A stretch of 29,194 nt of DNA from Thermotogota bacterium. GTDB taxonomy: Bacteria > Thermotogota > Thermotogae > Petrotogales > Petrotogaceae. The stretch is from assembly GCA_051748045.1 (NCBI GenBank), contig JBNJGY010000013.1:9346-38539 (forward strand). The letters run 5' to 3'. Under the pieces are notes generated by a model, which worked only from the letters and a program-made list of their open reading frames with translations, was not told the DNA's origin and ran no database searches. Positions 5,816 to 9,728 of the stretch are shown here, one piece after another (positions within the stretch are counted from its first letter, which is position 1; each line of letters opens with the position of its first letter). The translations under genes were made by a program, and so were the position numbers.

Positions 5816-7045
5816 ATGTTTTTATATATTTTTTTAGGTATTTATCTATTTGCAGAATTTTTTGATATTTTTCTTTCAAGATTAAATCTTAATTATTCAA
5901 CTTCTCCTTTAAGAGAAATCCCAAAAGAAATGAAAGATGAAATAACTTGGCATGAATTTGAAAAATCCAAAGAATATACAGCTGACAAGAATTTGATTAG
6001 TTTTGCTTCTCATATTCTAACTATTATAGCTAACATATTATTTATTATATTTATATTTCCGTATGTTGAAAACTTTGTTGTTAATTTAACAGATAATATT
6101 ATTTATCAATCATTTTTGTTTTTTGGTTTTTTTGGATTAGTAAATTATATTATTTCTCTACCTTTTAGTTATTTTAACACTTTTAAAATAGAACAAAAAT
6201 ATGGATTCAATAAAACTACTATGAAAACTTTTATATTAGACAATATAAAAAGTATTTTATTATCTGTGTTATTAGGTGCAGGTGTGATTTATTTAATTAT
6301 AAAAGGTATTCAAACATTTGATAATTGGTGGATAGTTGTTTCCTTTATTATCATAGGGGTTCAGTTTATAGCTATTTGGTTATATCCAAAATTTATTATG
6401 CCACTTTTTAATAAATTTAAGCCTCTTGAAAATGAAAAATTAAAAAACAAATTAGTTAAAATCGCAAATGATGCAGGATTTGATGTTTCAAAAATTTTTG
6501 TCATGGACGCTTCAAAAAGAACTGGACATTCAAACGCATTTTTTTCAGGGTTTGGAAAAACAAAGAAAATAGTTCTTTTTGATACATTATTAGAAGAACA
6601 CGATGAAGATGAAATTGAAGCTATTTTTGCTCATGAAGCTGGTCATTATAAATTAAATCATATTATGAAAAACATGTTTATTTCTATATTTTTAATGGTA
6701 GCTATAATTGTTTTAGTTTTCTTTATTACTGAGTCAAATCTTTTAACGGAAACTTTTGGAGTGAAAAAAGTATACACAAAACTGACTTATGCTTTTATCT
6801 TTGCTGGTAGTATCTTTAATTTTGTTGGTTACATATTAAGCACTATGAGCAGAAAACATGAGTTTGAAGCAGATAACTATTCAAAGAAATATAAAGATCC
6901 CAAACATTTAATTAGAGCATTGAAAAAATTAACGAAATCAAATTTATCTAATTTAAATCCTCATCCTTTGTATGCCAAACTCAATTATTCACACCCAACA
7001 CTTGTTGAGAGAATTAGAAATTTAAAAAGATCTAAAAAACAATGA
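5816..7045 (+). CDS. M48 family zinc metallopeptidase, Ste24/CAAX protease type
   Basis: HEAGH, MDASKRTGHSNAFFSG, SRKHEFEAD, YSHPTLVERI; multi-TM. Confidence 0.93.
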   Translation: MFLYIFLGIYLFAEFFDIFLSRLNLNYSTSPLREIPKEMKDEITWHEFEKSKEYTADKNLISFASHILTIIANILFIIFIFPYVENFVVNLTDNIIYQSFLFFGFFGLVNYIISLPFSYFNTFKIEQKYGFNKTTMKTFILDNIKSILLSVLLGAGVIYLIIKGIQTFDNWWIVVSFIIIGVQFIAIWLYPKFIMPLFNKFKPLENEKLKNKLVKIANDAGFDVSKIFVMDASKRTGHSNAFFSGFGKTKKIVLFDTLLEEHDEDEIEAIFAHEAGHYKLNHIMKNMFISIFLMVAIIVLVFFITESNLLTETFGVKKVYTKLTYAFIFAGSIFNFVGYILSTMSRKHEFEADNYSKKYKDPKHLIRALKKLTKSNLSNLNPHPLYAKLNYSHPTLVERIRNLKRSKKQ

Positions 7046-7235
7046 AGAAATATAAAAAAGAAAAGTATTGGAGTTTTACTGAGAGAAACAATATAAAAAT
7101 TGATGTTGAAAAACACGGATGTTTTTCATGCGAATTTATCCATGGATGGATAATATGAGCTGTACATCAATTTTATTGTTGAACGAGGGTTAAAAAACGA
7201 CCTACTTTGATTTTTTATATTTCGGAATTGTTTTT
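7035..7235. repeat. Nested imperfect palindrome (REP/MITE-like or structured RNA) with twin hairpins
   Basis: Five nested arm pairs enclose hairpins tgaaaaaca-cgga-tgtttttca and ttatcca-tgga-tggataa. Confidence 0.7.
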
Positions 7236-7254
7236 CTATGTCTTTCAAATATAA

Positions 7255-7278
7255 AAAGGCTCGCATATGCGAGCCTTT
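7255..7278 (-). terminator. Intrinsic terminator of the micropeptide operon
   Basis: Perfect 24-bp palindrome aaaggctcgcatatgcgagccttt; T run on minus strand, 10 nt after the ORF C stop. Confidence 0.8.
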
Positions 7279-7288
7279 CCAGTTTGGA

Positions 7289-7402
7289 TTAGATAAAGAT
7301 CCTGTTGCTTTCTGTTACTTCGTTTATTGATAAACATTCTACATTGGGGTTTAATAAATTTATTTTATTTAACTTATCATTATTTCTTGATTTTTTCATC
7401 AT
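7289..7402 (-). CDS. 37-aa micropeptide C (unannotated)
   Basis: MMKKSRNNDKLNKINLLNPNVECLSINEVTESNRIFI*; SD GAGGAGG; followed by terminator. Confidence 0.65.
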   Translation of the reverse strand: MMKKSRNNDKLNKINLLNPNVECLSINEVTESNRIFI

Positions 7403-7447
7403 TCAAATCGCCTCCTCATTTTTAGGAAACGGCTAAAAACTTATTCC

Positions 7448-7549
7448 TTAAAATCTTCTCATCAATTCAATTGCTAATTCTTTGTTATTGTCAAAAATTT
7501 CATCTTTTGCACTTATATATCTTTTTTTCCCAAAGTTTTTGTTTTTCAT
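7448..7549 (-). CDS. 33-aa micropeptide B (unannotated, paralog of A)
   Basis: MKNKNFGKKRYISAKDEIFDNNKELAIELMRRF*; SD AAGGAGGG at 7564-7557. Confidence 0.82.
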   Translation of the reverse strand: MKNKNFGKKRYISAKDEIFDNNKELAIELMRRF

Positions 7550-7579
7550 AATCCATCCCTCCTTTTTTCAGAAAGTAGG

Positions 7580-7678
7580 TCAGAATCTTCTTAACAACTC
7601 ACTAACTACATCTGAATATTCGTCAAACAAATTATCTTTAGCGCTTCTAATCCTTTTGTCATAAGTTCTTTTTGCCAT
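7580..7678 (-). CDS. 32-aa micropeptide A (unannotated, paralog of B)
   Basis: MAKRTYDKRIRSAKDNLFDEYSDVVSELLRRF*; SD AAGGAGGT at 7693-7686; TATAAT at 7726-7721. Confidence 0.82.
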   Translation of the reverse strand: MAKRTYDKRIRSAKDNLFDEYSDVVSELLRRF

Positions 7679-7909
7679 TTCGAATACCTCCTTTTGGAAT
7701 GTTTTTATATTTTCATAAGTATTATAATTTATAAAGTTAACTTCAAATCAAGAGCAATTTATGTTAACATTGAGTAAAATATACGAAAAATATGGAGTTA
7801 GCTATAGTTCATATTAATCATTGATTATGTAATGAAAAATATATCTTACAAAAACAGCATAAAATGACTGATTTTGAAATAGGATGAATAATATCATTAA
7901 TTTTGCATA

Positions 7910-7943
7910 TACAAAAACATGGAGTTAACTCCATGTTTTTGTA
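7910..7943. repeat. 34-bp perfect palindrome (terminator-like)
   Basis: tacaaaaacatggagttaactccatgtttttgta. Confidence 0.75.
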
Positions 7944-8015
7944 AGTATCTTTTTTCACTACTTAAGTATTATATTATGATAGAATTTATTGATATTATAA
8001 AAAAGAGGCGATTAT

Positions 8016-9221
8016 ATGAATAAAAACTATATATATTTTTGGTGGCATGCTTTTTTCTTGGCAATTGCAATAGTATTCACAGAAATAAATACAGTTATTC
8101 CATCATTGATTTTAAAAGCTGGGGGAAATGAAATTATCCTTGGTTTTCTTACTTCAATACTTGTTGGATTTCCTTTTATAACTAAATTTTTCTTTGCTTT
8201 TTTTCTTCATTCAAGAAAAAGGAAAAAACCATTTTTATTAATTGGAATTTATGTTAGAACTATTTCTCTTTTTTCTATAGGGTTTATAACAGGATATGCG
8301 AAAGATATAAATGATGCTCTAATGATTACTATTATTTTTGTATTAATGGGTTTTTTCTCTGTGGGAGGAGCATTTGCAGGAATTTCATATGTAGATGTTT
8401 TAGGAAAAACTGTATTAGAATCAAAAAGAAGATTAACTATGTCTGTTAAGCAGTTTATTAATGCTATTTCTACATTAATATTTGGCTTTGCAGCTAGATA
8501 TGTAGTTAGTGGATTTGAATATCCACAAAATTATTCTTATATGTTTTTAATAGCGGGTACTTCATTATTAATTGCTTCTTTAGGATTTTTGAAATTAAAA
8601 GAAGATAAAATTGAGAAAGAAATAGAAAAGATAAAAATAAAAAATATGTTAAAAATAATTAAAAATATAAACAAAAAAGATAAAAATTTATTTTTTTATA
8701 TCATTTTCTTAAATTTAAGCGCGTTTAGTCAAACTACTATACCATTTTATATCGCTTATGCTAAAAATGGATTTGGATTGACAGGACAAGAAGTTGGAAA
8801 TTATATGATTTTTCAAGTTATTGGAATGATAGTCGCTACACCAATTTGGTATTTTATTTCAAAAAGAGGTAGTTTTAAAAGGATTATTAAAAATTGTTTG
8901 GTTCTAGCATCTATTACACCTTTATATGCTTTGTTATCTATGAATTTCGGGATAAACTTTTATATATTTACCTTTTTATTGACCGGATTTAGTCTTAGTG
9001 CAAGAAAGATAGCAGTAGAAGGTTTGCTTATTGAAATTTCACAAAATGATAACAGGGCTTTGTATTCTGGAATATCTGGGGCTTTTAGTATTGTTTCTGC
9101 TTTGTTCCCTATTTTGTCTGGGATTTTAATAAGTTTCTTAGGATACAATTTTATTTTTATTCTAGTTTCAGTATTAGTTTTCTCTGCTTTAATACCATTA
9201 TCTAAAATAAAATATTCTTGA
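8016..9221 (+). CDS. MFS transporter
   Basis: About 12 hydrophobic segments in a 6+6 arrangement with a charged central loop; SD GAGG. Confidence 0.8.
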   Translation: MNKNYIYFWWHAFFLAIAIVFTEINTVIPSLILKAGGNEIILGFLTSILVGFPFITKFFFAFFLHSRKRKKPFLLIGIYVRTISLFSIGFITGYAKDINDALMITIIFVLMGFFSVGGAFAGISYVDVLGKTVLESKRRLTMSVKQFINAISTLIFGFAARYVVSGFEYPQNYSYMFLIAGTSLLIASLGFLKLKEDKIEKEIEKIKIKNMLKIIKNINKKDKNLFFYIIFLNLSAFSQTTIPFYIAYAKNGFGLTGQEVGNYMIFQVIGMIVATPIWYFISKRGSFKRIIKNCLVLASITPLYALLSMNFGINFYIFTFLLTGFSLSARKIAVEGLLIEISQNDNRALYSGISGAFSIVSALFPILSGILISFLGYNFIFILVSVLVFSALIPLSKIKYS

Positions 9222-9332
9222 AATAAATTACAAAGTAATTTATTTTGTTGCTGGTTGGAGGATGGAGGTAAAAAATTATATACTCTGTCATTTCGACTAA
9301 GAGTAGAAATCATTTCATGATTTCTATCAATA

Positions 9333-9425
9333 TTATTTTATTTTGAATTTATGTTTTTTCATTCTCATTTTTTCAATAAACTTGATAATTGGACATCTCA
9401 TCTTTATTTTCTTGAGTATCTTAAT
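9333..9425 (-). CDS. Possible cationic micropeptide (30 aa from ATT, or 22 aa from ATG at 9401)
   Basis: (M)KILKKIKMRCPIIKFIEKMRMKKHKFKIK*; AAGGAG 9 nt before ATT; hairpin 9304-9326 after stop. Confidence 0.4.
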   Translation of the reverse strand: MKILKKIKMRCPIIKFIEKMRMKKHKFKIK

Positions 9426-9684
9426 TGTGATTCACTCCTTTCTATAAGTATTTTAAAAATGATTAAAACACACTAATATTAAATTTGTTGTTTTTATGTT
9501 AACTGTTTAATTAATTTCTGAGTCGTCTTATTTAAGATATTTTAAATGAATCATCATCTAAATAATACAACAAACCACAATATTTAGTATATAATAGTGA
9601 TGATTGAAGTTTAATTAAAGCATAATTTTTTAACTAACTAGCGTAATGTGGGGTTTACTATTGAATATATATACTTTAAGTTAT

Positions 9685-9718
9685 CCCGACCTATTAATTT
9701 AGGTCGGGTATTTTCTTT
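9685..9718. terminator. Intrinsic terminator hairpin
   Basis: cccgaccta-ttaatt-taggtcggg; T-rich tail on + strand; 20 nt from glycerate kinase stop. Confidence 0.75.
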
Positions 9719-9728
9719 ATATATTCAA

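Follow-up and report, generated by a model that had tools for sequence, protein, structure and literature searches.

Proteins of fewer than 50 residues are largely missed by automatic annotation, and few families of such proteins come with supporting evidence. Among the described examples, SgrT, MntS, MciZ and Sda are small cytoplasmic regulators of 30–50 amino acids, present in single copy, some of them encoded beside the transporter which they modulate. The leaderless bacteriocins enterocin L50A/B, aureocin A70 and garvicin KS are helical peptides of 30–45 amino acids that occur as tandem paralogs, vary between strains and are often encoded near transporters. In Thermotoga maritima, the TM1316 locus reportedly encodes a highly transcribed peptide of about 30 amino acids near radical SAM and transporter genes, as Frock and colleagues are said to have described in 2013. 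The stretch of DNA analysed in this study (the window) comprises 29,194 nucleotides of the Thermotogota assembly GCA_051748045.1 (contig JBNJGY010000013.1, positions 9,346 to 38,539), from a poorly studied genus of saline and oil-associated samples. At positions 7255–7726 it carries a minus-strand operon of three micropeptide genes, A, B and C. Peptides A and B are members of a family that had no name before, here called family 1, which is real and well delimited among bacterial small-protein gene families. As judged by the sequence searches below, family 1 is restricted to one genus, where it is multi-copy and consists of peptides of 29–39 residues.

An earlier note, made from the letters of the window, had proposed three minus-strand open reading frames (ORFs) with strong Shine-Dalgarno sequences (SDs), a TATAAT upstream of A and a terminator after C. 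Coordinates and translations were found to match, and the promoter hexamer and the terminator hairpin were confirmed (Table 1). The SDs, AAAGGAGG for A, AAAGGAGGG for B and GAGGAGG for C, are located 6–9 nt 5′ of the ATG codons. Upon recounting, A and B indeed share 13 of 25 ungapped C-terminal positions, and a MAFFT alignment gave 15 invariant columns. The synonymous codon differences between the two genes (AGG/AGA, AGC/AGT, GCT/GCA, GAG/GAA and TTC/TTT, with the stop codons TGA/TAA) are all present.

A six-frame search of the own 2.41-Mb genome (G000) with peptide A alone retrieved B at E = 0.017, together with five further small open-frame paralogs at E = 0.0025–0.53. These additional copies comprise a tandem of 29 (GTG start) and 30 amino acids on contig C14, copies of 30 and 33 amino acids on contigs C52/C102 and, on contig C99, a copy of the first C52 gene with an identical protein. 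A profile built from six own-genome paralogs also matched copies that had not entered it, in the sister genomes G001 (E = 1.2e-13 to 6.1e-13) and G002 (E = 2.9e-6 and 3.7e-6), the two others of the genus, so the similarity of A and B goes beyond chance. Nine confirmed gene copies in five or six loci were counted in G000, eight of them matching at E ≤ 1e-13, with four copies in G001 and two in G002. Two matches with weaker scores, the 37-aa peptide of C40 and the orthologous one of G001:C5, were recognised as true members on inspection. With a ten-row profile, family 1 was detected at E ≤ 0.01 in three of 151 genomes of the phylum, all belonging to one genus out of 48. The ends of contigs C52, C99 and C102 fall inside or beside an a/b pair, and the copy number of ‘b’ is one or two; C52b and C102b are perhaps a single gene that appears at the ends of two contigs, and the assembly apparently broke there on a duplicated, near-identical module. 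Two further hits in G000 were set aside. The match at C12:21410 lies inside a 465-aa frame and was taken as spurious, and a 24-aa ORF at C27:26476-26547, which follows a module-type promoter and is truncated by the end of the contig, reached 2.4 bits against the family profile and was not counted.

A HMMER search against 1.84 billion representative proteins (E ≤ 1e-3) yielded 13 matches, of which 11 are small family members, namely ten peptides of 29–47 amino acids and P0004, an ENA metagenome protein of 76 amino acids. The ten peptide clusters contain 28 member sequences, named only ‘hypothetical protein’ or ‘Uncharacterized protein’. P0004 represents an adjacent A′-B′ ortholog pair that has been read through, with A′ identical to A at 30 of 32 positions and B′, its second half, identical to B at 23 of 33. 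The intergenic SD is kept in this pair, and two W residues stand at the positions of in-frame TGA codons in the window; the gene caller presumably read TGA as tryptophan. P0009 is a further ortholog of B, and P0013 is a cluster of 14 members. The long matches P0007, P0014 and P0015 were taken as spurious; P0014, the one that was read, is a repeat or coiled-coil protein. A metagenome scan based on P0004 gave two matches, both false positives (NusA genes sharing the 8-mer KDNLFNEY). The peptides were also considered as mimics of the NusA N-domain helix, which was rejected, as NusA of the own genome reads differently and the hhalign probability was 0.2%.

The earlier note did not recognise a named family, and the searches agree. 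Pfam-A returned no family for A, B or C at E ≤ 10, and just two of the 35 members matched one unrelated family (E = 0.14). No NCBIfam family was found for seven peptides, and in PHROGs nine families were hit by one member each, none significantly (best E = 0.031). A profile search of PDB with family 1 stopped at E = 4.1, the ESM Atlas gave unnamed clusters only, with a best score of 0.88 (below 0.9), and two subfamily alignments found no relative in viral contigs. A literature search for family 1 returned nothing. Small-protein databases of the sORFdb type may hold it as an unnamed cluster. The single record from outside the Thermotogota is an assembly labelled Halanaerobium saccharolyticum WC1 (NZ_QAXS01000057.1 = L061, NZ_QAXS01000047.1 = L062). 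This organism was rejected as a second host, since family 1 occurs in one of 72 genomes of the order of Halanaerobium, and the contigs concerned are of Thermotogota type: L061 shares 97.4% identity with G001:C9 across 3581 bp, and their GC content is 0.28–0.31, low like that of the Thermotogota genus. Contamination or very recent transfer is the more likely origin of the WC1 copy.

In the alignment of 35 sequences, A13 and E27 (numbering of peptide A) are the only invariant positions, and L28 comes close to invariance. Of the 35 rows, 33 end in F or Y, the exceptions being one V and one truncated entry, and the chain stops one or two residues past a basic or hydrophobic position. The general C-terminal pattern is ...EL-h-x(x)-F/Y-stop. 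The terminal RRF, regarded in the earlier note as a conserved feature of the family, does not extend that far. Other members end in RSF, RNF, GKF, IRF, MRF, MRY, LVF or IVF, and RRF is therefore a trait of the A/B subtype. Conservation of motif and frame in related genomes was accordingly found in part: the frame, the E, the L and the terminal aromatic residue are kept, but ELxRRF is not family-wide.

The proposed basic N-terminus and amphipathic helix were recovered. AlphaFold2 (AF2), run with the family alignment, predicted residues 1–12 as unstructured and a single helix from 13 to 31, with a mean pLDDT of 75.9. The hydrophobic moment of the helix is mostly 0.3–0.5, with the lowest values (0.09–0.24) in C40/C117-type members; for peptide A it is 0.51, a value reached by 38 of 2000 shuffles. 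The charge is +1 to +6 in the tail (members with the short start) and −2 to +1 in the helix, taken as the last 20 residues. All peptides are hydrophilic, with a grand average of hydropathy (GRAVY) between −0.36 and −1.32. Substitutions cluster in the basic N-terminal tail, while the helix is conserved. Composition analysis of A and B showed no transmembrane segment, signal peptide, hydrophobic stretch, Cys or Trp. A complex prediction for A with B scored 0.02 against a mark of 0.32, a value that counts neither for nor against a heterodimer.

Every copy of family 1 has kept the reading frame with the stop directly after F/Y, and the SDs and their spacing are conserved across the copies. At the DNA level the subtypes are too diverged to be followed, the sole match in a search with A/B of the window being 65 nt at 78% in G002. 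The ratio of non-synonymous to synonymous substitution rates (dN/dS, Nei-Gojobori) was 0.06–0.57 in eight ortholog or recent-paralog pairs, and the ninth pair, C52a/C99a, shows one synonymous and no non-synonymous difference. These values, with the frame kept in all copies, uphold the suggestion of protein-level constraint on the paralogs A and B, and both are probably translated genes under purifying selection. Four metatranscriptome runs from three studies each contained one contig of 198–275 nt, 100% identical to the window and wholly within 7329–7684 (7410–7684, 7418–7657, 7349–7602 and 7329–7526). The gaps A/B and B/C are bridged by these contigs, as expected for the single promoter-to-terminator unit A-B-C that had been proposed, and they hint at a polycistronic A-B-C transcript. 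The stretches of 6900–8100 without such contigs, where the flanking genes are located, are uninformative on expression.

The same architecture was found at every family-1 locus. A ACTCCATaTTTTT-like box and TTTTACATAAA precede TTGAC(A/T) (TTGATT in the window), followed by a 19-nt spacer with GTTTACT or GTTAACT, a TATAAT, a 5′ untranslated region (UTR) with TGAAAATATAAA and the SD. Behind these come one or two tandem family-1 genes, sometimes an unrelated second micropeptide, and a terminator. The 19-nt spacing is common to the modules on C14, C27, C40, C52 and C99. Across the genome, TTGAC[AT]-N-TATAAT occurs 45 times at N = 17, 17 times at N = 18 and 12 times at N = 19; five of these 12 sites are peptide modules, the window promoter with its TTGATT being outside the count. 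The terminator hairpin of the operon has a folding energy of −21.3 kcal/mol (z = −5.4); none of 200 shuffled sequences was equally stable. A generic consensus scanner missed both the promoter and the terminator of A-B-C and found promoters at chance level (10 vs 8.3 ± 2.5 expected), so the case for the operon signals is built on reading of the sequence, on folding and on comparison among the paralogs. Each locus reads as an autonomous promoter-to-terminator module, and the modules would all be co-regulated as one set.

MerR-type regulated promoters have a spacer of 19–20 nt with a dyad operator inside. The modules resemble them in the 19-nt spacer, and the spacer in the window contains the palindrome AAGTTAACTT; the dyads of the other modules, in contrast, are imperfect, weak or shifted. 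No MerR gene adjoins the modules, and nine MerR_1 matches are located elsewhere in the genome. In view of the imperfect dyads, the lack of an adjacent MerR gene and the promoter on C38 described next, co-regulation is put forward as no more than a supposition and MerR control as only a lead. At C38:14644-14840 of G000, a module-type promoter (ACTCCATGTTTTT box, 19-nt spacer) leads into a predicted transcript of about 80 nt with a strong terminator, upstream of a 298-aa ORF that is kinase-like by eye. This transcript may be a small RNA or a riboswitch-like leader. Another 19-nt-spacer promoter, at C5:7875-7905 of G000, is unrelated to peptides and contains the perfect dyad CCTGGAGT-TT-ACTCCAGG, which looks like a textbook MerR-type operator.

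Table 1. Coordinates of the features in the window and of the c-type genes at other loci.
Feature	Position	Strand	Description
Peptide A	7580..7678	minus	32 aa, family 1, basic tail and helix, C-terminus ELLRRF
Peptide B	7448..7549	minus	33 aa, family 1 paralog of A, C-terminus ELMRRF
ORF C	7289..7402	minus	37 aa, orphan, SD GAGGAGG, in the position of the ‘...IKKY’ peptide of other modules
−35-like hexamer TTGATT	7746..7751	minus	read directly; aligns with TTGACA/TTGACT of the paralogous modules
−10 TATAAT	7721..7726	minus	19-nt spacer from the −35; spacer holds the 10-bp perfect palindrome AAGTTAACTT
Conserved upstream element (ACTCCATaTTTTT ... TTTTAC...)	7752..7815	minus	common to module promoters; nine upstream regions aligned
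Probable 5′ UTR	7679..7714	minus	conserved TGAAAATATAAA box and SD AAAGGAGG; presumed transcription start about 7 nt 3′ of the TATAAT
Intrinsic terminator	7252..7281	minus	GC core GGCTCGC/GCGAGCC, then U-run (T-run in DNA)
MFS_1 transporter gene	8016..9221	plus	divergent from operon; Pfam MFS_1, E = 4.5e-23
Repeat like a miniature inverted-repeat transposable element (MITE)	7035..7235		201 bp, 33-nt terminal inverted repeats (85% complementary); directly 3′ of operon, left edge of island
Perfect 34-nt palindrome (17+17) TACAAAAACATGGAGTT/AACTCCATGTTTTTGTA	7910..7943		between operon promoter and divergent MFS gene
c-type genes	L002:1627-1707; L060:1613-1690; L055:1386-1463 (minus); L041:2178-2243		co-transcribed after family-1 peptides in four loci

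ORF C is not a member of family 1. Among 31 related genomes no homolog was detected at E ≤ 1 beyond chance-level matches (E = 0.24–0.40). At C14, C40, G001:C5 and G002:C117, a family-1 gene is followed by a second type of micropeptide, the likewise unnamed c-type, of 21–26 amino acids with the pattern ...(K/N)ND(I/F)..E.EE.E.I..IKKY-stop. ORF C occupies the c-type slot of its module and has a similar start (MMK...NND), but its C-terminus is NRIFI instead of IKKY. When it was aligned by MAFFT with the c-type peptides of C14, C40 and G002:C117, just M, N, D and one I were shared, across an 18-column gap. The c-type motif was not found in the other frames at ORF C, which thus hides no frameshifted c-type gene. 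ORF C is regarded as an orphan. That it is coding is suggested by the SD, by its location ahead of the terminator and by the RNA-library contigs that cover it in part (to 7329 and 7349).

In G001, the genes for an M48/Ste24-type peptidase and a DUF4147/MOFRL (glycerate-kinase-like) protein are 292 bp apart, whereas the gap between them in the window is 2.68 kb (7046–9728). The flanking genes are 83% identical to those of G001 in DNA (M48/Ste24) and 68% in protein (DUF4147/MOFRL). By this comparison, 7046–9728 is a species-specific island of 2.7 kb that holds the MITE-like repeat, the C-B-A operon and the divergent MFS gene. The MFS protein has no homolog in G001 or G002 at E ≤ 1e-5. The repeat is present in G001 as fragments and as six copies of about 200 bp with 95–97% identity; five of these are full, and the sixth, of 169 bp, lies at the end of a contig. 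One half-site of the 34-nt palindrome, ACTCCATGTTTTT, resembles the upstream box of the modules, and no other full half-site with fewer than two mismatches was found in the genome. This palindrome may serve as an operator or as a bidirectional terminator. Further short repeats are located in the island around 9211–9270. The left end of the MITE overlaps the stop of the M48 peptidase, a protein of 409 amino acids here and 405 in G001, with a different C-terminal tail.

The other loci have neighbours of various kinds. A TetR-like regulator (by reading), a radical SAM enzyme and an MFS protein are encoded at C14, and a CDF transporter and a GAF-HD-GYP protein at C52/C102, which is syntenic with G001:C11. 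C99 has a PucR-type regulator, and C40, syntenic with G001:C5 and G002:C117, a serine hydrolase and a kinase-like protein (both by reading). A membrane sensor is found at C27, where the family membership of the ORF is unconfirmed, and a MarR-like regulator, a nitroreductase and a DUF2281 protein at G001:C9 (by Pfam for DUF2281 only). No neighbour is common to all family-1 loci. The radical SAM protein of C14 has 356 amino acids (L002:123-1193 = G000 C14:29236-30306), and its gene follows the TetR-like gene (by reading). Its best NCBIfam matches, to SPASM-type enzymes and to peptide maturases, all score far below the cut-offs. Orthologs with 34–46% identity occur patchily in other genera; G001 and G002 have none, but contain a paralog of 32% identity.

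The family-1 peptides, for which the earlier note had suggested docking or adaptor, inhibitor or signal-precursor roles, are tentatively read as cytoplasmic docking helices, the interpretation preferred here. They would stay in the cytoplasm and, as free helices, dock onto a larger partner protein or complex and modulate it. Contact would be made by the hydrophobic face and the carboxylate of the terminal F/Y, and the variable basic tail would act as a non-specific affinity or solubility element. Tandem a/b peptides would pair together or address related targets, and the shared promoter architecture would make the modules one co-regulated set. Several points weigh against this interpretation. 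A transporter stands beside three of the six loci, and in the window the MFS gene was gained or lost along with the operon, so that export fits as well as a cytoplasmic role. As the neighbours differ among loci, the context names no target. The 19-nt-spacer architecture also precedes the non-peptide transcript on C38, and such a spacer could merely be the way in which this genus builds some strong promoters. The dN/dS values are based on 3–17 substitutions per pair, the RNA-library contigs carry neither strand nor level and could derive from DNA carry-over, and the translation of A and B is argued from sequence comparison. It could even be supposed that the ORFs are untranslated and that the conserved unit is a small RNA in which the frames are incidental, with promoter, 5′ region and terminator conserved as in a small-RNA gene. 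This is highly improbable, since frame, stop position and SD spacing are kept in every copy despite the divergence of the DNA, non-synonymous changes are depleted, conservation extends at the amino-acid level over 35 sequences and Rfam gave no match anywhere in the window.

If the peptides leave the cell instead, they could be leaderless exported peptides, a hydrophilic signal or bacteriocin-like set that the neighbouring MFS protein secretes and to which it perhaps gives immunity. The peptides are without a leader and form strain-variable, diverged tandem paralogs of about 30 amino acids; an MFS gene lies beside two of the six loci and a CDF gene beside one more, and the operon forms with its MFS gene one island that is absent between the same flanking genes in G001. 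Export is nevertheless considered unlikely. Known leaderless bacteriocins are cationic and hydrophobic, whereas these peptides are strongly hydrophilic and free of Trp, and their helix is neutral or acidic. The MFS proteins of the window and of C14 share just 23% identity across 253 residues (E = 4e-4) and are thus not a conserved partner. Three of the six loci have no adjoining transporter, an adjacency in the other three that by rough estimate is not beyond chance, and at least six loci are many for one bacteriocin system. The radical SAM gene of C14, directly upstream of the family-1 pair on the same strand, brought to mind a ribosomally synthesized and post-translationally modified peptide (RiPP) whose core would be the conserved C-terminus, matured by a radical SAM/SPASM enzyme. 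Mycofactocin-type precursors have a conserved C-terminal aromatic residue, which the family-1 C-terminus recalls. Such an enzyme, however, is encoded at one of the six loci only, its ortholog is missing from the peptide-bearing G001 and G002 and present, with other neighbours, in genera without the peptides, A and B contain no Cys, and the window island has no gene for a maturase, a protease or a RiPP recognition element (RRE), which makes a RiPP origin quite improbable. Equally little speaks for type I toxin-like or addiction modules, in which multi-copy toxic peptides would be held in check by RNA. Multiple copies, a recent duplication (C52a/C99a, one synonymous change) and strong expression would suit them, as would mobile or defence-type genes beside some copies, namely those for a DUF2281 protein (Pfam) and, by reading, for an SNF2-like helicase, an ISL3-like transposase, a methyltransferase and a DNA polymerase of family B. 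Yet the peptides lack a hydrophobic or transmembrane segment, homologous pairs cannot be toxin plus antitoxin, opposite-strand promoter-like sites are at chance level, and several loci are syntenic between species (C40/G001:C5/G002:C117; C52/C102/G001:C11), not mobile. Precursors of the RRNPP/SHP type have an adjacent cognate receptor-regulator and either a secretion signal or a hydrophobic mature C-terminus; at the family-1 loci no neighbouring regulator is conserved (PucR occurs at one locus only) and the C-termini are charged. More far-reaching, and decidedly doubtful, is the idea that at least six autonomous cassettes form one regulon encoding two unrelated families, family 1 with R-x-F/Y and the c-type with KKY, as a new lineage-specific small-protein system. 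Its hetero-pairing basic-tail/helix peptides would act as switches of a conserved cellular machine when the MerR-like 19-nt-spacer promoter senses a stress, or would be leaderless hydrophilic signals exported by a co-acquired MFS pump.

Family 1 offers a clean, testable case, with many paralogs, orthologs in sister species, purifying selection, a conserved promoter cassette and metatranscriptome traces. Experimental handles are provided by the unusual class of promoters with a 19-nt spacer and by the a/b pairing in tandem. If a partner is found, family 1 would show a lineage inventing and multiplying a regulatory micropeptide; with neither partner nor phenotype, family 1 would be one further conserved hypothetical small-protein family.

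In comparison with the described systems, TM1316 is not a detectable relative, since family 1 is confined to one genus among the 151 Thermotogota genomes, as judged by the profile scan of those genomes. The likeness to leaderless multi-peptide bacteriocins lies in the A/B-type tandem of leaderless paralogs of about 30 amino acids. Family 1 differs from them in its hydrophilic composition, with a near-neutral helix and without Trp, and in having no conserved transporter or immunity gene. With the small cytoplasmic regulators SgrT, MntS, MciZ and Sda it has in common the size, the absence of a signal peptide, the single helix and an expected binding to a partner, without sequence similarity to them (Pfam and NCBIfam empty). 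Family 1 is a member of neither group. It bears a superficial likeness to the leaderless bacteriocins and would work most like the small cytoplasmic regulators, from which it is set apart as a multi-copy family of tandem diverged pairs with a common promoter cassette.

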